In this document: positions 6,685-21,627 of the stretch, piece after piece
How the letters are laid out: the number at the start of each line of letters is the position of its first letter
How positions within the stretch are numbered: the first letter of the stretch is position 1
The notes under the pieces: model-generated
Told to the model about the DNA's origin: nothing
Seen by the model: only the letters and a program-made list of their open reading frames with translations
Databases searched by the model: none
Sequence record: OR437326.1
Strand: one strand, 5' to 3'
Length of the DNA: 64,000 nt
DNA from: Escherichia phage iGC_PHA_EC001
Made by a program: the position numbers and the translations under genes

Positions 6685-7077
6685 ATGAATCTAAAGACTA
6701 AAACTGTATTGAGTTTTGTTTTAATTGTTGTTCTTATTCTTGCCGGAATGTTTGCTTATAACAAGATACGTGAGTCTGGCTACAAAGATGGTGTTGCCTA
6801 TCAAACGCAAGTATATCAAACAGCCCAAGCAAAAGCAAAACAAGATTTTGATGTTCTTCAAAAAAGAGCAGATGAAGAAAGAGCATTATTAAATACTCAA
6901 ATAAACAACTTGTCTAAAAACAATGCACAATTAAAAGCAGATTTAGAGAAGAAGAAACAAACGATCAATGAGGATACAACGAATTATGCAAAAACTAATT
7001 CTGGCAGTATGTCTTGCTTTGCCCCTAATGATGACGGGTTGTTCATCATCAACAAAAGTTTCCCCAGTTCTTATTGA
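6685..7077 (+). CDS. i-spanin (Rz-like inner-membrane spanin subunit)
   Basis: N-terminal transmembrane helix (VLSFVLIVVLILAGMFAY) then long coiled-coil periplasmic domain; o-spanin gene overlaps its 3' end in another frame. Confidence 0.6.
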   Translation: MNLKTKTVLSFVLIVVLILAGMFAYNKIRESGYKDGVAYQTQVYQTAQAKAKQDFDVLQKRADEERALLNTQINNLSKNNAQLKADLEKKKQTINEDTTNYAKTNSGSMSCFAPNDDGLFIINKSFPSSY

Positions 7078-7312
7078 TGAGTGTAAGGCTGTAGCCATAG
7101 AAAAGGTTAAAGGTCCAGATTCGGACTTGATGGATAAAGTATCGACACCTGTGCCATACACTAAAAATCAAATTGCAAAAGGGGTTAGTAGATCTGAAGT
7201 TGTTAACAACCAAACTCAAAACAATGCTCTTTGGGAGCAAGATAGACGAAAGGTTCTAGGTTTACAAACATATATTAAAACACTGCAAGAAAAAGGTATT
7301 ATTGCTGAATAA
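6968..7312 (+). CDS. o-spanin (Rz1-like outer-membrane lipoprotein); start may be ATG at 6986
   Basis: Signal peptide plus lipobox (LALPLMMTG|C), Pro-containing mature part with a second Cys; begins inside i-spanin gene in a different frame. Confidence 0.55.
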   Translation: MRIQRIMQKLILAVCLALPLMMTGCSSSTKVSPVLIDECKAVAIEKVKGPDSDLMDKVSTPVPYTKNQIAKGVSRSEVVNNQTQNNALWEQDRRKVLGLQTYIKTLQEKGIIAE

Positions 7313-7321
7313 GGAGGGAAT

Positions 7322-9397
7322 GTGGCAAAGAAAAAGGCAGCAGGTAGTTTAGCTGGAGTAGATATTGAAGTAAAGGCTCAACCAGGTAAACAGACTCTTG
7401 CAATGGATTTAATGCCAGAAGTTATGATTTATGGTGGTGCCGCTGGATGTGTTTCTGCTGAAACGGAATATCTTACAAAAGATGGTTGGAGGCAGATTAG
7501 TGAATATTCGGGAGAGGATATTTACCAATACAATCCTAAGAATAAGCGTTTAGAATTGGTAACACCTTATTTTGTAGAATACGATTTAAATGGAGATAAC
7601 CTATACAGAATAACAAATGGTGTAGGATTATTCCAAGAACTTAGTATGGAACACCGTTTTGTATTCTATAAGAAAAAGAAATCAAAGAAACATTTCGAGA
7701 TTCTTGTAGGAGATCTTATTGCATTACAGCAAATAGGAAAACCCCTGCAAGGTTATGTAGAAAATCCATTCGGTAAACGTGTTCCTTTTAACATACCTGG
7801 TAAAAAGAGCACTTACTTAAAAATACACGAGGTTATTTCAACAGATGATAAGAAATATTGTTTTGAGACTCCAAGCAGCTATATTGTCTTTAGACGTGGC
7901 GATCACTGCTTCGTTACTGGGAATAGCGGCAAGTCTCGTCTGCTATTGCTGAAAGCTTTAAAATACGCCTACAAAGACCCTTTGTTTGGTGGAATACTTT
8001 TCCGTAAGAACACCACTGCTCACCGTAAACCAGGTGGTCTGTTTACAGAAGCAAAACGTTTGTATCTTCCTTTACAACCACACGTAAAAGAAAGTACAAT
8101 GGATATCATTTTTGAAGCCACTGGTGGTGGAACCCTCAAATTTGACCATTTGGAAAATGATAACGTAACAGCAGAAACAAACCATCAGGGTACACAGTAT
8201 TCAATGGTAGGTTTTGACGAGTTAACCCACTTCACACAATATGAAATGCTCTATCTTCTGGGACGTATGCGTTCAGAGTCAGAAACAAGTTTCATGTTGT
8301 GCACATGTAACCCTGACGCAGATAGTTGGGTTTTGAATTGGGTGTTACCTTATCTTGATGAGGGTGGTTATCCTAGAGAAGATATGTGTGGTAAACAAAA
8401 ATATTTCATCATTGTTAACGATGAACCTGTTTTTGCTGACACACCTGAAGAACTGAAAGAAAAATATCCAGAAAACTGTTTCATGGAAAACCCTAATACA
8501 GGGGAGACAGTTGTTATTGAACCACAAACTTTCGTATTTATTGGTGGGACAATATTTGATAACCCAGAACTCATTAGGCTTAACCCTAATTACTTAGCAC
8601 AGCTTAAATCACAAACAGCTATCAAAAGAGCACAGCTTCTGGACGGTTGTTGGTTTGCACGTATCCAGAAAGAATCTTTCTTTCAACGTGAATGGTTACA
8701 TAAAATATCTTATAAAGATGTTCCTAACAATCTTAAACTAATGCGAGCATGGGATAAAGCTGTTTCAGTTCCTACAGAAACTTACCGTTATCCAGACTAT
8801 ACAACATCTGTCAAAATGGGTAAAGATCAAGATGGTAATATCTACATCTTTGGCGACTATGATTATGATGCTGTGGATGAGAAAAGTAAAATTTTCGGAA
8901 GGTTTCGAAGACTACCTGGGGAAAGGGATAACCTGATTCTAAATCAATGTAAGATTGATGGACCAGAAGTTACAGTAGTGCTTCCTAAAGACCCATCTGG
9001 TGCTGGGACAATAGAATACACAGAGTCTGCAAAGAAACTTATTCTAGAAGGTTTTGTTGTTAAACCAGATGCTATGCCAGGTAACAAGAAAAAGCTTCAG
9101 CGTTTTATGCCTTTTAGTAGTGCGTGTCAAAACGGTTTTGTTTATATTGTTGAAGATTCTTTCCCTAATGTGGAAACTTTAACCCACTTTTATAAAGAAT
9201 TGGAATCTTTCAATGGTGAAAGATCTACAGCCACTATTAAAGATGACATTCCCGATGCTGCTGCCTCTTGTTTTAATACTCTGTCAAAAGAGAATACTTT
9301 CAAAGCAGTAGCTATCCCTACAACAACAAATGCTCCTACAGGATACAGTAGAATGAACAGCGGATTTCACCAACCGTATAGTGTCCGTAAAAGATAA
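7322..9397 (+). CDS. terminase large subunit, precursor containing an intein
   Basis: After removing residues 43-201 the junction reads GGAAG|SGKS, a Walker A P-loop; ATPase/nuclease-sized protein directly upstream of portal. Confidence 0.8.
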   Translation: MAKKKAAGSLAGVDIEVKAQPGKQTLAMDLMPEVMIYGGAAGCVSAETEYLTKDGWRQISEYSGEDIYQYNPKNKRLELVTPYFVEYDLNGDNLYRITNGVGLFQELSMEHRFVFYKKKKSKKHFEILVGDLIALQQIGKPLQGYVENPFGKRVPFNIPGKKSTYLKIHEVISTDDKKYCFETPSSYIVFRRGDHCFVTGNSGKSRLLLLKALKYAYKDPLFGGILFRKNTTAHRKPGGLFTEAKRLYLPLQPHVKESTMDIIFEATGGGTLKFDHLENDNVTAETNHQGTQYSMVGFDELTHFTQYEMLYLLGRMRSESETSFMLCTCNPDADSWVLNWVLPYLDEGGYPREDMCGKQKYFIIVNDEPVFADTPEELKEKYPENCFMENPNTGETVVIEPQTFVFIGGTIFDNPELIRLNPNYLAQLKSQTAIKRAQLLDGCWFARIQKESFFQREWLHKISYKDVPNNLKLMRAWDKAVSVPTETYRYPDYTTSVKMGKDQDGNIYIFGDYDYDAVDEKSKIFGRFRRLPGERDNLILNQCKIDGPEVTVVLPKDPSGAGTIEYTESAKKLILEGFVVKPDAMPGNKKKLQRFMPFSSACQNGFVYIVEDSFPNVETLTHFYKELESFNGERSTATIKDDIPDAAASCFNTLSKENTFKAVAIPTTTNAPTGYSRMNSGFHQPYSVRKR
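7448..7924 (+). mobile_element. mini-intein (159 aa) inserted in the terminase Walker A motif
   Basis: Starts Cys (CVSAETEYLTKDGW, Hint block A-like), ends ...HCFVTGN followed by Ser +1; splicing restores GGAAGSGKS; too short for an endonuclease domain. Confidence 0.7.
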
Positions 9398-16798: not shown

Positions 16799-18172
16799 AT
16801 GGCAACTTTTCGTGAAAAGGTAGCAACCGTAACTTTACTGTATGGTGCTACATCAATTCGTGAAACCCAGTTCGATATTCCCCTGATCCTTACAGGTCAG
16901 AACGTAACTGGCGAAGCGATTCAATATTACTCTTCTTCCGATGCACTTTTGGAAGCAGGTTATGGATTAAATGATCCAGCGTATATTATGGCAGTCAAAC
17001 TGTTTAACGGTTTGTTCCCACCAGATCAAGTCATGGTTGGTAAGCGTGAAGTTACAAACTTTACTCTAACTCCAATCGTAGAAGATAGTGCAACTTACAC
17101 AATTACCATCAAAAATGGTACCAAGAAAAAAGAATTTAAATTCATTGCTGATGACACTGCAACTGCACAAGAGATTGTAGTTGGTCTGACTGAAATGATC
17201 AATGCAGATCTTGTTTATGGCCCACTGTTTACAGTAGCTAACAACGGCGCTGCAATGACTTTCACTCCAGTAGAAGGTAAGTTTGGTTCTATTGACAGCA
17301 CAGGTTTCACTCAAGAAACTGTCTATGCTAATGCTATTACGGAAGATATCGCTGCTCTGCATGATATTGATAGTAGCTGGTTCTGGACCCTTTCAGATTC
17401 CCATGAAACAGAAGATGTTCTAGCTTTGGCTGCATGGGTAGAAGAGAATGATAAAGTTTACTTCTTCTCTAGCTCTGAACCTGGAATTAAAACGAAAGCA
17501 GAAGATAACGTTCTGGAACGACTGAATGACCTCGGTTATAATAACACTTGCTTTGCTTTGTGGATGACCGATGCAGATTCTGTATTCCCAGAAGCGGCAG
17601 TTGTTGGTGCAATCTGTTCTCGTCAACCTGGTTTAACTACTCTTCACGGTAAAACACTGGTAGGTGTAGAGATCGAGAAACTGGATCAGACTTCGGAAAA
17701 CAATATTGTTCAACAGAACGGTAACATCTATCGTAAAGAGCATGGAACTCTGTTCTATCGTGATGGATTGATGGTTAGCGGTTTCTTTGTTGACTATGTT
17801 GTTCATGCTTTGTGGTTTAAAGCTCGCACAGAAGAATCACTGTTTACACTGTTTAAACAACAGTCTATGCTGGGTGGCGGTGTTCGTGCTACTTCAAACG
17901 GTCTGGCTTTGATTCGACAAGCTGTTCTGGCTAACCCGATCCAAGTAGGTATCCTCAACGGTTCCATCGCTAATGAAGTTGTTACTTCTGAAGAGACTGG
18001 TTTGCGTGTCGATCTGAAACCTATTGTTTATATTCCTTCTCGTGCCGATATGACTGATGCGCAAATCAATGCTCGTCTGGTAGATGGGATGAAGATTGAA
18101 TATGTTTACGCTGGCTTCTTCCATTACGTTAAAGTTCAGGTCAACGTCCTGACTAACCGTACTGCAAACTAA
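16799..18172 (+). CDS. putative tail sheath protein
   Basis: 457 aa followed by a 159-aa tube-like gene, chaperone and tape measure (myovirus order sheath-tube-chaperone-TMP). Confidence 0.45.
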   Translation: MATFREKVATVTLLYGATSIRETQFDIPLILTGQNVTGEAIQYYSSSDALLEAGYGLNDPAYIMAVKLFNGLFPPDQVMVGKREVTNFTLTPIVEDSATYTITIKNGTKKKEFKFIADDTATAQEIVVGLTEMINADLVYGPLFTVANNGAAMTFTPVEGKFGSIDSTGFTQETVYANAITEDIAALHDIDSSWFWTLSDSHETEDVLALAAWVEENDKVYFFSSSEPGIKTKAEDNVLERLNDLGYNNTCFALWMTDADSVFPEAAVVGAICSRQPGLTTLHGKTLVGVEIEKLDQTSENNIVQQNGNIYRKEHGTLFYRDGLMVSGFFVDYVVHALWFKARTEESLFTLFKQQSMLGGGVRATSNGLALIRQAVLANPIQVGILNGSIANEVVTSEETGLRVDLKPIVYIPSRADMTDAQINARLVDGMKIEYVYAGFFHYVKVQVNVLTNRTAN

Positions 18173-18177
18173 TACGG

Positions 18178-18200
18178 CGGGGGTTAAGCCCCCGTTATCA
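18178..18200 (+). terminator. GC hairpin after sheath gene (weak U tract)
   Basis: CGGGGG-TTAAG-CCCCCG followed by TTATCAAAAT. Confidence 0.4.
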
Positions 18201-18218
18201 AAATAAAGAGGATCTATA

Positions 18219-18698
18219 ATGGATAAAATGCTTACTGGCGTAATGGCCTACGACCCATCTCAAGTTATCCTTTCATTAGGTGGTTGGGAACCGTGGGGTT
18301 TTGCGGCTGATACTAAAATCGTTATTGCTAAATCTAACGATATTATCAACCCTTATGCAGGGACTGATGGCGACGTTTCACTAGCTTTGAGTCGTAACCG
18401 TTTGGGAACACTCACAATGTCTTTGCAACGCACATCTCCAGCTAACGAAGTACTTGCAACATATGCACAAACAATGTATTCTACTCGTCAAGTAGCATTC
18501 AGCGTTTACTTGGAAGACCCACGTGGCTATTACATTAGCACGATTGGATGGATTCAAAGTCAGCCTGAAGATACTATTGGCGAAATGATTACAGAGAACC
18601 AATGGGTTATTGGTCTTAAAGATGCAAGCCTTCTGCGTAATGAAGTTGGTGTAGGTTTGAGCACCCTTAACTCAATCTCTGCTCTGACAATTCAATAA
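18219..18698 (+). CDS. putative tail tube protein
   Basis: 159 aa between sheath-like gene and chaperone/TMP. Confidence 0.45.
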   Translation: MDKMLTGVMAYDPSQVILSLGGWEPWGFAADTKIVIAKSNDIINPYAGTDGDVSLALSRNRLGTLTMSLQRTSPANEVLATYAQTMYSTRQVAFSVYLEDPRGYYISTIGWIQSQPEDTIGEMITENQWVIGLKDASLLRNEVGVGLSTLNSISALTIQ

Positions 18699-18703
18699 TA
18701 AAT

Positions 18704-18727
18704 AAAGGGCAGAAATGCCCTTTTTAT
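18704..18727 (+). terminator. intrinsic terminator after tube gene
   Basis: GGGCA-GAAA-TGCCC followed by TTTTT. Confidence 0.6.
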
Positions 18728-18743
18728 CATTAGAGAGGAAAAT

Positions 18744-19226
18744 ATGTCACAAGAACAAGATAACACAATTCAAAAATATGCTCGACCAGAAGAAGTAGTT
18801 GAGATTCCGTTAGATGGAAACAGATCTGTTACTTTCCGTATTATGAAGTGGAGTCCATCTAAAGTGTTTGACAGGATTCCAGAATTAGGTAGTGTTCTGG
18901 TTGTTCCTATGACTATGTATAGCACAGCAACAATGTCCGCAGACGAAGACCTTGAGTCGCGTATTGCTATGGCACTGATCCAACTTTTTGCAGGTTTGGA
19001 AGAAAAGAATTTAACTGTCTTTTTGCGTAAAATTTTAGATGAGGTTTATACTCAAGACGGTTATAACGTTGCAGAAAATTTTGATGAATTATTTATGGCT
19101 CACCCAGAACTAGTGTTAGATCTTACTGCTAAAGTTCTGGAGGTAAACTACGGCCCTTTTTTCAAACGAGGTTTCGGAAAACTGTTCACACAGCTTCAGG
19201 CGATGACGAGTTTAGCAGCAAATTAA
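18744..19226 (+). CDS. tail assembly chaperone (G-like, zero-frame product)
   Basis: 160 aa directly upstream of tape measure; contains slippery heptamer near its 3' end. Confidence 0.5.
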   Translation: MSQEQDNTIQKYARPEEVVEIPLDGNRSVTFRIMKWSPSKVFDRIPELGSVLVVPMTMYSTATMSADEDLESRIAMALIQLFAGLEEKNLTVFLRKILDEVYTQDGYNVAENFDELFMAHPELVLDLTAKVLEVNYGPFFKRGFGKLFTQLQAMTSLAAN

Positions 19227-19492
19227 CACCTGCGATTGAACATGCTATCGACATAGCAACGAAAACCCTTACTTTGAAGTGGTATGAGGTTATTCTTTGC
19301 AAAGTCGTTAAAGATACCTCGGAAACACTGAAAACATTGGATAACTACGGTGTAGATTATCTTTTAAAACTATATGAGTATTTAACATACGAAGAGTATG
19401 TTGAAGCCATGTATGTTAAAGACACTTCAATAAAGAGAAAACATCAAAACCAGACAAATAAAATGTCAGATTTGTTTAAGAAACTTGTTTAA
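18744..19492 (+). CDS. tail assembly chaperone, -1 frameshift fusion product (GT-like)
   Basis: -1 frame is open from 19133 to 19492 and is entered at T_TTT_TTC (19157-19163); downstream track ORF 19274..19492 starts at TTG without its own RBS. Confidence 0.45.
19157..19163 (+). promoter_or_regulatory. programmed -1 ribosomal frameshift slippery heptamer TTTTTTC
   Basis: X_XXY_YYZ in zero frame (CCT TTT TTC); conserved position between chaperone and tape measure. Confidence 0.5.
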
Positions 19493-19512
19493 TCCAACAC
19501 GAGGAACATACT

Positions 19513-21501
19513 TTGTTAGAAATTAACGCCTCCAGAATTAGTAACGTGGTTACGTTTAAGGTGGACAAGAACAGTCTCAAGGAAGCAAAAGATGCCGTGT
19601 TGAGTGTTCAGAAGTTTGCAAATAAAATGCAACCCACTATGAACATGACCAAGTTTAGACAACAAATGAAAGAGATTGAGCGTGAACTTAAGAAAGCTCA
19701 AACTCAAAGTCAAAAACCTATGCGAGCACCTACTCCCGCTGGAGCGGGTGCTCCTGTAGGCGGATCTGGTAGACCTAGAACTCCTAAAACCCCGCAAGGA
19801 AGAGAAGAAGAAAAAGCTCGTAAAGCTGCTGAACGCGAAGCTAAAGCAGCAGCACGTAGGGAAGATTTAGGTAATCTTCGTTTGCAGAACTTTAACTATC
19901 GAGCAAGAGCATTTAGTAAAGCTAGTCCTGGCGCTATGCAAGAAGCTAGAGACGTTATGGGTAAAGCTGTAGAGCAATACAAAAAGGGTGAAATAACTCT
20001 TCAACGTATGAACCAAGCTCTTGCTCACCAGTTGGATGCTTTACGCAGATCTCATCGTGAAAAGAATGCTGAAATAGAAGACGAGGTTCGCGGTCGTCGC
20101 CGTATTCGTAGAGAGCTAGAAGCAGAAGCTAAAATGCGTATACGTATGCGAAATCGTGAACTTAGAGATATAGAACGCAACCGTAAGCGTGAATTAGCTC
20201 AACAAAAACGTGATCGTGATCGTCGATATGGACAATTAAAAGAAGGTGCAGCAGGTCTTAATCCACGCATGATTGCATCCTCTTTGATCGGTGCTGGACT
20301 GTTTGCAGGTGGTTCTGTAGTTGGTAACACTTTGATGAATACTAACGAAAGAATTAAACTTGTAAGCCGTGGCGCTGAAAACGTTCAGACAAACGCCAAC
20401 TCTATTTTAACGATGACAGCTTGGGGTGAACAGAACGGTGTAGACTCTGCAAATATTATTAAGTCAATAGATAATATTAAAGACGTTCGTGAACGTCTTG
20501 GTAATACAGTTTTAGCCTCAAAATGGAATGAGAAAGAAGGGAAGTGGAAAGGCGGTGATAATGGCATAAATGACATTATGAACTTGTTTGGATGGAATCC
20601 AGAACAGCTTAAACCTTTACAGAACGATCCTTTAGCTTTTATTCAGGCTACTGTTAATGAGGGTGAGCGTCGAGGTATGAACTCTGCTCAAATCGGGCGA
20701 CTTCTTGAAAACCTTGGTGACGACCTTATGCACTACCAACGAATGTTTAGTAAAAACGGCGAAGGATACAATGAAACATTGAAAATGCTTCAAAGAACAG
20801 GTGCAACATTAACTCAAGAACAAATAGACGCTTCTAAAGAGTTTACTCGTTTTGCTGCAACAGTTCAACTTGTAGGTCAAGGTATGCAGAACCATTTCTT
20901 AGAAGGTTTTGTAAAAGCTTTACCTAAAGATGATTCTTGGTTGGATAACGTTAAAGTGCTAGATCAGTTTGCCAAAGATTTAGGTGAAGAACTCGGTAAG
21001 ACAACAGTTCAATTAGGAGGTTTTGCTAAAGAATTGGGAGATGGTTTCGGATCTTTTACCAATTGGCTTAAAGAAACATTCCCAGATACATTCGGAGACA
21101 ACACAGATCCTAATAAATCCCTGGCCCAAAAAGCATACGAGGCAACGCAAAGTGGAGACAGCAATCCTGTAGCAGATTGGTTGTACAATTTAACAGGTAT
21201 TGATACACAAGATATTGGTCGTATGTGGAGAGGAGAACAAACAAGGACACGTGCTTTTGGATTTGGTAATCCTCTTGAAGATTTACGTGAATCAGCCTAT
21301 ACACCTAACGTAAGTTTGGCTCGTAATCAACCTGTTGTTGAGAATACGGTAGCAATACCAAGTGATCTTATCAAAGTTACGATCAGCCCTTCTTCAGAGT
21401 TTGGAAATATTCTTGATGCAAGAATTCAAAATAGCGGAAATAGCATTTTCCAACGTTTATCTCTTTCAACTCTAAGTGGACAATCTAACACTGGTGGTTA
21501 A
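19513..21501 (+). CDS. tail tape measure protein
   Basis: 662 aa, highly charged helical N-terminal half, position after chaperone pair; TTG start with GAGGA upstream. Confidence 0.6.
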   Translation: MLEINASRISNVVTFKVDKNSLKEAKDAVLSVQKFANKMQPTMNMTKFRQQMKEIERELKKAQTQSQKPMRAPTPAGAGAPVGGSGRPRTPKTPQGREEEKARKAAEREAKAAARREDLGNLRLQNFNYRARAFSKASPGAMQEARDVMGKAVEQYKKGEITLQRMNQALAHQLDALRRSHREKNAEIEDEVRGRRRIRRELEAEAKMRIRMRNRELRDIERNRKRELAQQKRDRDRRYGQLKEGAAGLNPRMIASSLIGAGLFAGGSVVGNTLMNTNERIKLVSRGAENVQTNANSILTMTAWGEQNGVDSANIIKSIDNIKDVRERLGNTVLASKWNEKEGKWKGGDNGINDIMNLFGWNPEQLKPLQNDPLAFIQATVNEGERRGMNSAQIGRLLENLGDDLMHYQRMFSKNGEGYNETLKMLQRTGATLTQEQIDASKEFTRFAATVQLVGQGMQNHFLEGFVKALPKDDSWLDNVKVLDQFAKDLGEELGKTTVQLGGFAKELGDGFGSFTNWLKETFPDTFGDNTDPNKSLAQKAYEATQSGDSNPVADWLYNLTGIDTQDIGRMWRGEQTRTRAFGFGNPLEDLRESAYTPNVSLARNQPVVENTVAIPSDLIKVTISPSSEFGNILDARIQNSGNSIFQRLSLSTLSGQSNTGG

Positions 21502-21508
21502 TAAAATA

Positions 21509-21530
21509 CCTCGCTTCGGCGGGGTTTTTT
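21509..21530 (+). terminator. intrinsic terminator after tape measure gene (UUCG tetraloop)
   Basis: CCTCGC-TTCG-GCGGGG then TTTTTT. Confidence 0.65.
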
Positions 21531-21538
21531 CGTTTCCC

Positions 21539-21568
21539 TTGACACGAAGTTTCTATATGTGTTACAAT
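21539..21568 (+). promoter_or_regulatory. sigma70-like promoter (TTGACA-N18-TACAAT)
   Basis: Immediately after terminator; precedes baseplate genes. Confidence 0.5.
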
Positions 21569-21627
21569 AATCAATATGGGAAGATCTTGCATCTTCCTTT
21601 TGGCATTATCATTACTACGAGGTTATC

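Follow-up and report, generated by a model that had tools for sequence, protein, structure and literature searches.

Probable programmed -1 frameshifting by ribosomes on the tail assembly chaperone gene of Escherichia phage iGC_PHA_EC001, a phAPEC8-like myophage

Introduction

In a phAPEC8-like myophage, the gene for the tail assembly chaperone very probably contains a programmed -1 ribosomal frameshift, a conclusion that we draw from its sequence and from comparison with related phages. Most ribosomes would translate positions 18744-19226 of the window (the whole 64,000-nucleotide stretch of DNA analyzed here, from Escherichia phage iGC_PHA_EC001, sequence record OR437326.1) into a 160-residue short chaperone, and a minority would slip back by one base with two tRNA-Phe positioned on UUU-UUC within the sequence U_UUU_UUC (19157-19163). 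The slipped tRNAs would re-pair on UUU-UUU, and reading would go on in the -1 frame to position 19492. The product of the slip would be a long form of 249 residues, in which residues 1-140, common to the short form, are followed by a C-terminal extension of 109 residues; the ratio of short to long form would be set by the efficiency of the shift. By analogy with lambda G/GT, P2 E/E+E' and other chaperones, the two forms are expected to coat the tape measure protein and to recruit tube subunits during tail assembly, and both are expected to be absent from the virion. The paper on the phi92 virion structure does not give the chaperone among the virion proteins, which is consistent with this expectation and is not a test of it. 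We infer the occurrence of the shift, its efficiency and the roles of the two proteins. An initial annotation of this DNA had proposed a programmed -1 frameshift in the tail assembly chaperone, in the conserved G/GT arrangement before the tape measure gene, and the protein family, the gene order and the conservation described below support that proposal.

Results

The window is that of a phAPEC8-like Escherichia myophage, Phapecoctavirus, and its tail genes are ordered, 5' to 3', as sheath, tube, chaperone, -1-frame ORF and tape measure. The sheath gene (16799-18172) lies upstream of the tube gene (18219-18698), which directly precedes the chaperone gene. Between tube and chaperone genes there is a terminator-like hairpin, AAAGGGCAGAAATGCCCTTT, followed by a T-rich tail (18704..18723, plus strand). 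The phAPEC8 record annotates the counterpart of this hairpin as a putative terminator, and the hairpin probably lowers transcription into the chaperone/tape-measure unit. The chaperone gene is preceded by the Shine-Dalgarno sequence GAGAGGA (18733..18739, plus strand; context TTATCATTAGAGAGGAAAATATG). The tape measure gene (19513..21501, plus strand; PHROG 16051, E = 0) starts at TTG, has the Shine-Dalgarno sequence GAGGA at 19501-19505, and is followed by another terminator-like hairpin (21508-21525). The chaperone ORF and the -1-frame ORF are thus placed as a gene pair of the G/GT type, downstream of the tube gene and directly upstream of the tape measure gene.

The zero-frame ORF (18744..19226, plus strand) encodes the 160-residue short form, G or TAC-N. 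It matches Pfam family PF21822, Phage_TAC_15 (E = 5e-23; 82.4 bits against a cut-off of 22), and PHROG 3840, tail assembly chaperone (E = 3e-50), and these profile matches identify the first ORF as a member of the recognized tail assembly chaperone family PF21822. A fold search gave no independent confirmation that the short form has the fold of solved chaperones such as that of HK97 (PDB 2ob9), and a sequence search of the PDB returned no match. In an AF2 model of the short form the core ends with a helix at residues 121-141, and the tail (143-160) is of low confidence; the end of the modeled core, residue 141, coincides exactly with the proposed shift site.

The heptamer T_TTT_TTC (19157..19163, plus strand) lies in frame as X_XXY_YYZ over codons Phe139-Phe140, where the zero-frame codons are CCT (19155-57), TTT (19158-60) and TTC (19161-63). 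A second heptamer, C_CCT_TTT, overlaps the first at 19154-19160, and a shift at either would yield an identical protein. After the heptamer the zero frame continues for 20 sense codons to the TAA at 19224-19226, so that the short form has its own tail of 20 residues, KRGFGKLFTQLQAMTSLAAN, which is specific to it. The -1 frame is closed by a TAA at 19130-19132 and then stays open from 19133 until the next stop, the TAA at 19490-19492. Both frames are open together for 94 nt (19133..19226, plus strand), and only within this overlap can a -1 shift join the two ORFs. The codon positions and the flanking stops bear out what the initial annotation had stated of this site, namely the presence of T_TTT_TTC in the zero frame of the chaperone gene, the extent of the open -1 frame (19133-19492), and a shift site about 20 codons before the zero-frame stop.

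How often such a site would arise by chance can be estimated from the window itself. In-frame X_XXY_YYZ heptamers occur in its ORFs at a rate of 0.004 per codon, and TTTTTTC, with 5 occurrences in 22,561 codons, would be expected about 0.007 times in the overlap. A long -1 extension (88 codons) is found, among the 90 in-frame heptamers of the window, only at the two overlapping ones described here; the next-longest (39 codons) is in a probably spurious minus-strand ORF. For a single genome by itself the heptamer is suggestive. Conservation across relatives places the site, on comparative grounds, far beyond what chance would be expected to produce.

The relatives compared comprise 52 loci, 26 of them non-redundant, from Stephanstirmvirinae and Vequintavirinae, with chaperone identity down to about 24%; 12 GenBank loci and 39 IMG/VR loci were the sources of relatives. 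One of the two peptide patterns by which the IMG/VR loci were retrieved included Phe-Phe, which means that conservation of the amino acids is partly ascertained, and that of codon choice is not. Exact in-frame TTTTTTC is present at the homologous codons in all 52 loci. In the non-redundant set a Cys, Pro or Ser codon (TGT, CCT or AGT) precedes the two Phe codons, always with T as its third base (26/26), and the Phe codons themselves are TTT (26/26) and TTC (26/26), such that all three synonymous positions are invariant. Nearby invariant residues do differ synonymously, as for a Val encoded by GTT in 17 loci, GTG in 5, GTA in 2 and GTC in 2. Given Pro-Phe-Phe, the probability of CCT TTT TTC under the codon usage of the window is 0.13 per independent lineage.

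These data bear on the reading that there is no functional recoding, in which the heptamer and the -1 ORF are the result of chance or a relic and only the 160-residue protein is made. Chance alone would supply about 0.12 in-frame heptamers of any kind in the 31-codon overlap. Against this, the -1 ORF runs 80-92 codons past the zero-frame stop in every one of the 52 loci (one being cut by a contig end) despite saturated synonymous divergence, whereas the +1 frame closes after 2-20 codons; the heptamer is invariant, and the -1 frame shows a pattern of purifying selection, described below. We regard this reading as barely credible, and the comparative data effectively refute it.

Joined by the shift, positions 18744-19163 and 19163-19492 (plus strand) would encode the 249-residue long form, GT or TAC-NC. 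The -1-frame extension, or T part (19163..19492, plus strand; 109 residues and stop), consists of a QTRFRK motif, a variable linker rich in Gly, Ser and Asp, and a conserved helical domain; its AF2 model is all-helical (pLDDT 71), and it matches PHROGs 16039, 10409 and 8811, each of unknown function. Predicted tryptic peptides that would distinguish the two proteins are VLEVNYGPFFQTR, at the junction of the long form, and VLEVNYGPFFK for the short form. In a set of 5.8 billion proteins neither a natural in-frame fusion of G and T nor an annotated fusion protein was found; the matches were only G proteins of 158-175 residues, nearly all of about 160, and T fragments of 64-85 residues. No second copy of the chaperone was found, and the window has one locus with overlapping frames.

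Translations of the -1 frame align across both subfamilies from the heptamer onward, and the aligned part takes in about 35 residues that precede TTG 19274, the earliest ATG, GTG or TTG codon in this frame. Over positions 19227-19273, 12 of the 18 substitutions that separate the window from phiWec186, and 11 of the 18 that separate it from muut, fall on third positions of the -1 frame, and in both comparisons the synonymous changes of this interval are mostly synonymous in that frame. By this pattern of substitution, the -1 frame is under constraint of a protein-coding, purifying type, including the part that lies upstream of any start codon.

GenBank and RefSeq records carry instead a 72-residue "hypothetical protein" from TTG 19274 (19274..19492, plus strand). 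Were this an independent small gene, the heptamer would be incidental. Such an annotation is used for phAPEC8, WPEC4 and many other records, PHROG 16039 was itself built out of the 72-residue calls, and a few relatives (Hena1-like phages and some Certrevirus) have an ATG or TTG codon of the -1 frame at the heptamer itself. However, TTG 19274 has no Shine-Dalgarno-like sequence in the preceding 25 nt (CGACATAGCAACGAAAACCCTTACT), and several RefSeq records call no gene at the downstream ORF at all. Nor is the position of the start conserved: the first -1-frame start codon follows the heptamer by 30-85 codons, depending on the lineage, and gene callers put the N-termini of database homologues at seven alignment columns, which lie within conserved sequence. 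Both protein conservation and the third-position bias reach back beyond 19274, through 19227-19273, to the heptamer, whose invariant synonymous sites are unexpected for an incidental sequence. An independent gene is, in our judgment, highly improbable, and the 72-residue call represents the T part without its N-terminal portion. The initial annotation had described the downstream ORF as beginning at TTG with no ribosome-binding site, which holds, and had named an independent promoter or ribosome-binding site as grounds for abandoning the frameshift; besides the missing Shine-Dalgarno sequence, no promoter-like site was found between 18845 and 19600.

Elements that might stimulate the shift were sought on both sides of the heptamer. 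Upstream, an internal Shine-Dalgarno-like GGAGGT (19139..19144, plus strand), 12 nt 5' of the heptamer, is a candidate stimulator of the dnaX type. Over the 300 nt that precede the heptamer it is the strongest anti-Shine-Dalgarno match (-10.7 kcal/mol), and the strongest match occurs at equal spacing in 17 of 28 lineages, the distant FelixO1-like phage Moogle included. The Glu codon at this element is GAG in 20 of 24 lineages, as compared to 25% GAG usage in the window, and internal GGAGG is found only 6 times in 13.8 kb of neighboring genes. Several lineages that keep the heptamer lack the element. We consider GGAGGT an element that may stimulate the shift.

The initial annotation had suggested a search for a stimulatory structure downstream, and folding, RNAalifold and an Rfam scan found none. 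The 100 nt after the heptamer in the window (19164-19263) fold no better than shuffled sequences (z = 0.04); across 10 lineages the 100-nt folds range from z = -2.7 to +1.7 with no common helix, pseudoknots not having been searched for specifically. RNAalifold on 11 Stephanstirmvirinae gave -0.68 kcal/mol, the sole helix being one of 5 pairs at a distance of more than 75 nt, and the Rfam scan (E <= 1) gave just two sub-threshold matches to sRNAs, both at the terminator. The conserved sequence GGTTTCGG (19170..19177, plus strand), which lies 6-9 nt past the heptamer on its 3' side, is translated as Gly-Phe-Gly in the zero frame and as Arg-Phe-Arg in the -1 frame, and its counterpart in KPP10 is CTCGGTTTCGAC. 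Since it is double coding, its conservation is probably explained in this way and not by an RNA element. Small hairpins around GGTTTCGG, with stems of CGA/TCG in the window and of CGAAA/TTTCG in some Vequintavirinae, were rejected as candidates; they start 1-3 nt after the heptamer and show no covariation. The locus thus has, of the elements of a dnaX-type site, the Shine-Dalgarno-like sequence about 10-14 nt 5' of the heptamer and not the stem-loop 5-9 nt 3' of it. Because no downstream stem-loop was found, the efficiency of the shift could be low.

It is possible, and we advance it tentatively at less than even confidence, that upstream pairing of rRNA and mRNA, between the internal GGAGG(T) and the anti-Shine-Dalgarno sequence of 16S rRNA, mainly tunes the frameshift, and not a downstream structure. 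Placed 12-13 nt before the heptamer, GGAGG(T) would bind the 16S anti-Shine-Dalgarno sequence of the translating ribosome, much as at dnaX, and biased choice of synonymous codons would keep its spacing in Phapecoctavirus, Justusliebigvirus, Vequintavirus and distant Moogle. If so, lineages without GGAGG(T) would set a different ratio of short to long chaperone, and the family would form a natural series for the study of tail chaperone stoichiometry.

The same long protein could also arise by transcriptional slippage, if RNA polymerase added an extra U on the homopolymer run T6 (19157-19162) to produce mRNAs with fused frames. The product, ...PFFQTR..., would be identical, and the comparative data do not tell the two mechanisms apart; that no downstream RNA stimulator emerged from the folds or from RNAalifold also agrees with slippage by the polymerase. 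Bacterial RNA polymerase slips efficiently only on longer runs, however, of about 8-9 A or T or more; T6 falls short of that length, and KPP10 relatives have only T5 (G_GTT_TTT) at the same codons. The flanks of the run are invariant as well, with C as the Z base and in-frame X_XXY_YYZ placement in 26/26 lineages; in-frame placement matters for tandem tRNA slippage and not for transcriptional slippage, and therefore counts against the latter. The Shine-Dalgarno-like element at dnaX-like spacing likewise indicates a ribosomal mechanism. We consider transcriptional slippage very unlikely, and ribosomal frameshifting remains our preferred explanation.

Discussion

The arrangement described here is of the textbook G/GT kind, and the phage group is what is newly added, having so far been mis-annotated. 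A frameshift annotation is absent from all phAPEC8-like, phi92-like and rV5-like records examined, and the papers searched on rV5, phi92, PhiTE, Phapecoctavirus, Vequintavirinae and Stephanstirmvirinae yielded no mention of this frameshift and no mass spectrometry, western blot or ribosome-profiling data on the two proteins. The main value of the finding is for annotation. In GenBank/RefSeq, at least 60 genomes, near-identical to one another and belonging to E. coli phages that are candidates for therapy (phAPEC8-like, phi92-like and rV5-like), show only a shortened "hypothetical protein" or no gene in the stretch that would encode the C-terminal half of the long chaperone. The understanding of recoding and of tail assembly is unchanged.

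The nearest known systems include the G/GT frameshift of lambda and the chaperone frameshift that is reportedly conserved among long-tailed double-stranded DNA phages. As in lambda, the window has a pair of overlapping ORFs flanked by the major tail (tube) gene and the tape measure gene, the second ORF being startless and in the -1 frame. The heptamers differ, G_GGA_AAG in lambda and T_TTT_TTC in the window, and the shift site, which is a few codons before the zero-frame stop in lambda, is 20 codons before it here. Unlike lambda, the window belongs to a contractile-tailed lytic phage of 150 kb, and its chaperone is of a different Pfam family (PF21822).

Closer in tail type are the E/E+E' genes of P2, which are also said to employ a frameshift, and gp41/42 of Mu. 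The P2 heptamer is T_TTT_TTG. Both phages resemble the window in having a contractile tail and a -1 shift at a T-rich heptamer in a chaperone gene that lies directly before the tape measure gene; they differ in being temperate, in having small genomes, and in showing no detectable sequence-family kinship to it.

For the upstream element the obvious comparison is the dnaX gene of E. coli, where a -1 frameshift at A_AAA_AAG is reported to involve an upstream Shine-Dalgarno-like element and a downstream hairpin. The spacing 5' of the heptamer is 10 nt in dnaX and 12 nt for the GGAGGT of the window, and a spacing of 12 nt is among those at which stimulation of -1 shifting has been reported. In contrast to dnaX, the window has no downstream hairpin, and the Shine-Dalgarno-like element is not universal among its relatives.

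Frameshifting is not the only route to two chaperone forms. According to PMC10885494, which summarizes Vladimirov, Gautam & Davidson 2022, some T4-like phages make the two forms from separate genes without frameshifting. On that account, the T4-like chaperones are like that proposed for the window in that a short and a long form are both needed, whereas the window has a single locus with overlapping frames.

A deposited precedent exists in the FelixO1-like Citrobacter phage Moogle (KM236239), whose "tape measure chaperone" is a two-piece joined CDS. Like that of the window, the Moogle chaperone belongs to PF21822 (E = 7.5e-20), is located upstream of the tape measure gene, and has T_TTT_TTC, preceded by GGAGG 13 nt upstream; the homologous motif is NFGSFF in Moogle and NYGPFF in the window. 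Moogle differs in its family-level lineage, in its low sequence identity to the window, and in having its frameshift annotated.

The case for a -1 frameshift with a "GTTTTT" motif has been made in Vandenendeviridae (Pakpunavirus Adele and KPP10) and in Andersonviridae, on the grounds that the -1 frame is universally open and that a T-rich motif is conserved at the 3' end of TAC-N (Viruses 2025, 18:42; PMC12846349). That study links these families, by their capsid, portal and terminase, with Vequintavirinae and Stephanstirmvirinae, and the chaperone loci of the two subfamilies lie outside its scope. The KPP10 chaperone, like that of the window, matches PF21822 (E = 9e-25), has its site at the same three codons, and has a -1 product that opens with a TRFRR motif. 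Its G_GTT_TTT is imperfect, with perfect re-pairing only by the A-site tRNA, whereas T_TTT_TTC in the window is fully canonical. Together, these comparisons show that Stephanstirmvirinae, Vequintavirinae, FelixO1-like phages and Vandenendeviridae have in common one predicted frameshift site, which occupies the same three codons where PF21822 ends. The ancient conservation that was recently proposed would thereby reach two more subfamilies, in which the site takes its fully canonical form.

Organization of the tail chaperone locus

The window is affiliated with Phapecoctavirus in the Stephanstirmvirinae (phAPEC8-like). Its 18200-21600 region shares 99.4% identity with Escherichia phage vB_EcoM-P3322 and 98.6% with phAPEC8, and matches 64 phage records at at least 95% and another 63 at 60-80%. 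One match, 99% identical, is by name an Acinetobacter phage (vB_AbaM_ABPW7, OP562383.1), and the Campylobacter phages C11, A12a and A13b (MG065652.1, MG065666.1, MG065677.1) match the query at the chaperone locus like E. coli rV5-like phages; these four records look like host mislabels or contaminants. On the plus strand, the tail sheath (16799-18172) and tail tube (18219-18698) genes are followed by the 160-residue open reading frame of the chaperone short form (18744-19226), by a -1-frame open reading frame, and by the tape measure gene (19513-21501), the G/GT-type arrangement that the initial annotation had recognized. Terminator-like hairpins on the same strand flank the chaperone/tape-measure unit on both sides: one at 18704-18723, between the tube and chaperone genes, which is annotated in phAPEC8, and a second at 21508-21525. 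The first would reduce transcription of the chaperone and tape measure genes relative to the sheath and tube genes. Annotation of the tape measure start differs among near-identical genomes; phAPEC8-type records place it at TTG 19513, preceded by a GAGGA Shine-Dalgarno sequence, and that of WPEC4 (at 1928 of the compared locus) lies about 115 codons further downstream.

The slippery heptamer and its chance expectation

The heptamer T_TTT_TTC at 19157-19163 is in the zero frame of the chaperone gene (codons CCT 19155, TTT 19158, TTC 19161) and conforms to X_XXY_YYZ. Twenty sense codons separate it from the zero-frame stop at 19224-19226, and the -1 frame, closed by TAA at 19130-19132, is open from 19133 to TAA 19490-19492. 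A -1 shift here would yield a 249-residue protein composed of short-form residues 1-140 followed by QTRFRK...KKLV; in the window's lineage a second heptamer, C_CCT_TTT, overlaps the first, and the product from either is identical. Very probably, two tRNA-Phe would slip -1 in tandem on U_UUU_UUC, generating a minority 249-residue long form beside the 160-residue short form; this is the best-supported mechanism. Transcriptional slippage on the T6 run would make the identical long protein, but the run is short, the heptamer is placed strictly in-frame and the variant in phage KPP10 has T5, so that we consider this route improbable.

TTTTTTC occurs 5 times in the 22,561 codons of the window's open reading frames, and among 90 in-frame heptamers a long -1 extension (88 codons) follows only the two overlapping ones at 19154-19163. 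In-frame heptamers, whatever their type, have a frequency of 0.004 per codon in these frames, so that about 0.12 would be expected in the 31-codon overlap; the window genome by itself is therefore only suggestive. The evidence that we regard as decisive for frameshifting is comparative.

Conservation of the heptamer among relatives

With the predicted fusion protein as query, tblastn matched 358 phage records, and matches across the junction fell into two segments, which is what two frames would produce. We compared 12 GenBank loci representing seven named genera and three unassigned phages (phAPEC8, WPEC4, ESCO5, muut, phiWec186, KP13-16, slur16, Mydo, Hena1, SSE121, CR8 and ChuuTotoro), in which chaperone identity to the window falls as low as 24%. 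All 12 carry an in-frame TTTTTTC at homologous codons and a -1 open reading frame reaching 80-92 codons past the zero-frame stop, and in all 12 the +1 frame stops within 2-20 codons. An additional 39 IMG/VR loci have the same pattern; they were retrieved with two peptide patterns, and because one of these included a Phe-Phe motif, their amino-acid conservation is partly ascertained, whereas their codon choice is not.

Among 26 non-redundant loci, the first Phe codon is always TTT and the second always TTC. The preceding codon is TGT in 14, CCT in 11 and AGT in one, so that the first base of the heptamer is T in every locus even though the encoded amino acid varies. Neighbouring invariant residues vary synonymously (Val: GTT 17, GTG 5, GTA 2, GTC 2; Tyr: TAC 19, TAT 7). 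Given Pro-Phe-Phe and the window's codon usage, the probability of CCT-TTT-TTC is 0.13 per independent lineage. That the heptamer and the -1 frame are a chance relic is effectively excluded.

Coding in the -1 frame upstream of the annotated start

When the -1 frame is translated from the heptamer onwards, the products can be aligned across the Stephanstirmvirinae and Vequintavirinae. Common to them are FF-x-x-RFR(K/R), a variable linker rich in Gly/Ser/Asp and then a conserved domain, which begins about 15-20 residues upstream of the window's TTG 19274, the first canonical start codon of this open -1 frame. Between 19227 and 19273, intergenic in GenBank, the window differs from phiWec186 and from muut by 18 substitutions each, of which 12 and 11, respectively, fall at -1-frame third positions. 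When codon differences are split into synonymous and non-synonymous, the -1 frame gives 7:5 and 6:6; read in frame 0, the two comparisons give 2:12 and 2:10, and in frame +1 they give 0:13 and 1:12. This pattern points to translation of the -1 frame even ahead of its first available start codon.

Independent initiation at 19274 is how phAPEC8 and WPEC4 are annotated, with a separate 72-residue protein, but conservation of the -1 frame extends further upstream, and no Shine-Dalgarno sequence precedes this TTG, as the initial annotation had stated. Gene callers place the start of this downstream frame in seven different alignment columns, all within conserved sequence, several RefSeq records have no gene call there, and no promoter-like site was found across 18845-19600; expression of the 72-residue protein from 19274 is therefore not supported, and we judge it even less probable than transcriptional slippage.

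A -1-frame start lies directly before TTT TTT in five compared loci (L009, which is Hena1, L034, L035, L044 and L045): ATG in Hena1-like phages (1151-1160 of the Hena1 locus) and TTG in some Certrevirus loci. These starts arise from synonymous variation in a frame-0 Gly codon (GGA/GGT TGT), where the window has CCC. Internal initiation of the -1-frame portion could in principle occur in these lineages.

Candidate stimulatory elements

A downstream stimulatory structure, which the initial annotation had proposed seeking, was not found by folding, RNAalifold or Rfam. The 100 nt 3' of the heptamer in the window fold at -17 kcal/mol (z = 0.04 versus shuffles), no downstream helix is common to 10 lineages, RNAalifold gave -0.68 kcal/mol for 11 Stephanstirmvirinae, and Rfam gave no match. 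The sequence GGTTTCGG at 19170-19177, 6-9 nt downstream of the heptamer, is kept in nearly all lineages (loci L004-L012 and that of KPP10 included). Frame 0 reads it as Gly-Phe-Gly and frame -1 as Arg-Phe-Arg, and because both motifs are conserved, double coding explains its retention with no need for an RNA element. Conservation within this double-coding stretch thus covers both the tail of the short form and the beginning of the extension.

Upstream, an internal Shine-Dalgarno-like GGAGGT occupies 19139-19144, 12 nt 5' of the heptamer, and nowhere else in the preceding 300 nt of the window is the anti-Shine-Dalgarno sequence matched as strongly. In 17 of 28 lineages, the distant FelixO1-like Moogle among them, the strongest match likewise has this spacing; the element is absent from Mydo, KP13-16, CR8, ChuuTotoro and KPP10. 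Codon choice at the contributing Glu is strongly biased: 20 of 24 lineages use GAG, which makes up just 25% of the Glu codons of structural genes in the window; internal GGAGG occurs only six times in 13.8 kb of neighbouring genes. Since a Shine-Dalgarno-like element about 10-14 nt upstream reportedly stimulates -1 shifting in dnaX (Larsen and colleagues, 1994), GGAGGT is a plausible candidate for a dnaX-type stimulator.

Predicted protein products

The short form belongs to Pfam PF21822 (Phage_TAC_15; 82 bits against a cut-off of 22) and also matches PHROG 3840; for the extension, the only matches are to PHROGs without an assigned function. In the AF2 prediction for the short form (pLDDT 72.9, pTM 0.67), the final confident helix (residues 121-141) ends at the slip-site Phe-Phe, and the 20-residue tail peculiar to this form has low confidence. 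The extension is predicted, with modest confidence, to be all-helical. Against the PDB, Foldseek returned nothing significant; the HK97 chaperone 2ob9 came up only at E = 3.1. From lambda and other systems, we infer that the two forms would coat the tape measure protein and recruit tube subunits.

Comparison with known systems

No joined coding sequence was present at the chaperone locus in about 14 phAPEC8-like, phi92-like or rV5-like records inspected, the papers searched, on rV5, phi92 and others, contained no mention of a chaperone frameshift, and large-scale protein searches turned up neither a natural in-frame fusion nor a deposited fusion protein. The locus has the arrangement that Xu, Hendrix and Duda reportedly described in 2004 for long-tailed phages. 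Our analysis confirms what the initial annotation observed and supports its interpretation as a programmed -1 frameshift, an ordinary feature of a well-known class that is systematically mis-annotated in these phages. Two precedents stand particularly near to this locus. The record of the FelixO1-like Citrobacter phage Moogle contains a two-piece joined coding sequence, "tape measure chaperone", whose short form is PF21822, as in the window, and whose T_TTT_TTC lies within an NFGSFF motif and is preceded by GGAGG at a distance of 13 nt.

The other is the -1 frameshift with a GTTTTT motif whose conservation in Vandenendeviridae and Andersonviridae was argued in 2025 in a paper on Pseudomonas phage Adele (PMC12846349). 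The same paper related the two families to Vequintavirinae and Stephanstirmvirinae, whose chaperone loci lie outside its scope and are examined here. Upstream of the chaperone gene, where the window has a single tail-tube gene, KPP10 carries three tail-tube paralogues in tandem (6066-7646 of the compared locus); its genes from sheath to baseplate spike are otherwise arranged as in the window's relatives. The KPP10 chaperone is likewise PF21822, the three codons that form T_TTT_TTC in the window carry G_GTT_TTT in KPP10, and its -1 product begins TRFRR where the window's begins QTRFRK. The slip site is therefore homologous across all four groups (Stephanstirmvirinae, Vequintavirinae, FelixO1-like phages and Vandenendeviridae), with its fully canonical form in the window. 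The locus has two minor points of interest: that the heptamer is invariant across these four groups, and that it may have a dnaX-like upstream stimulator.
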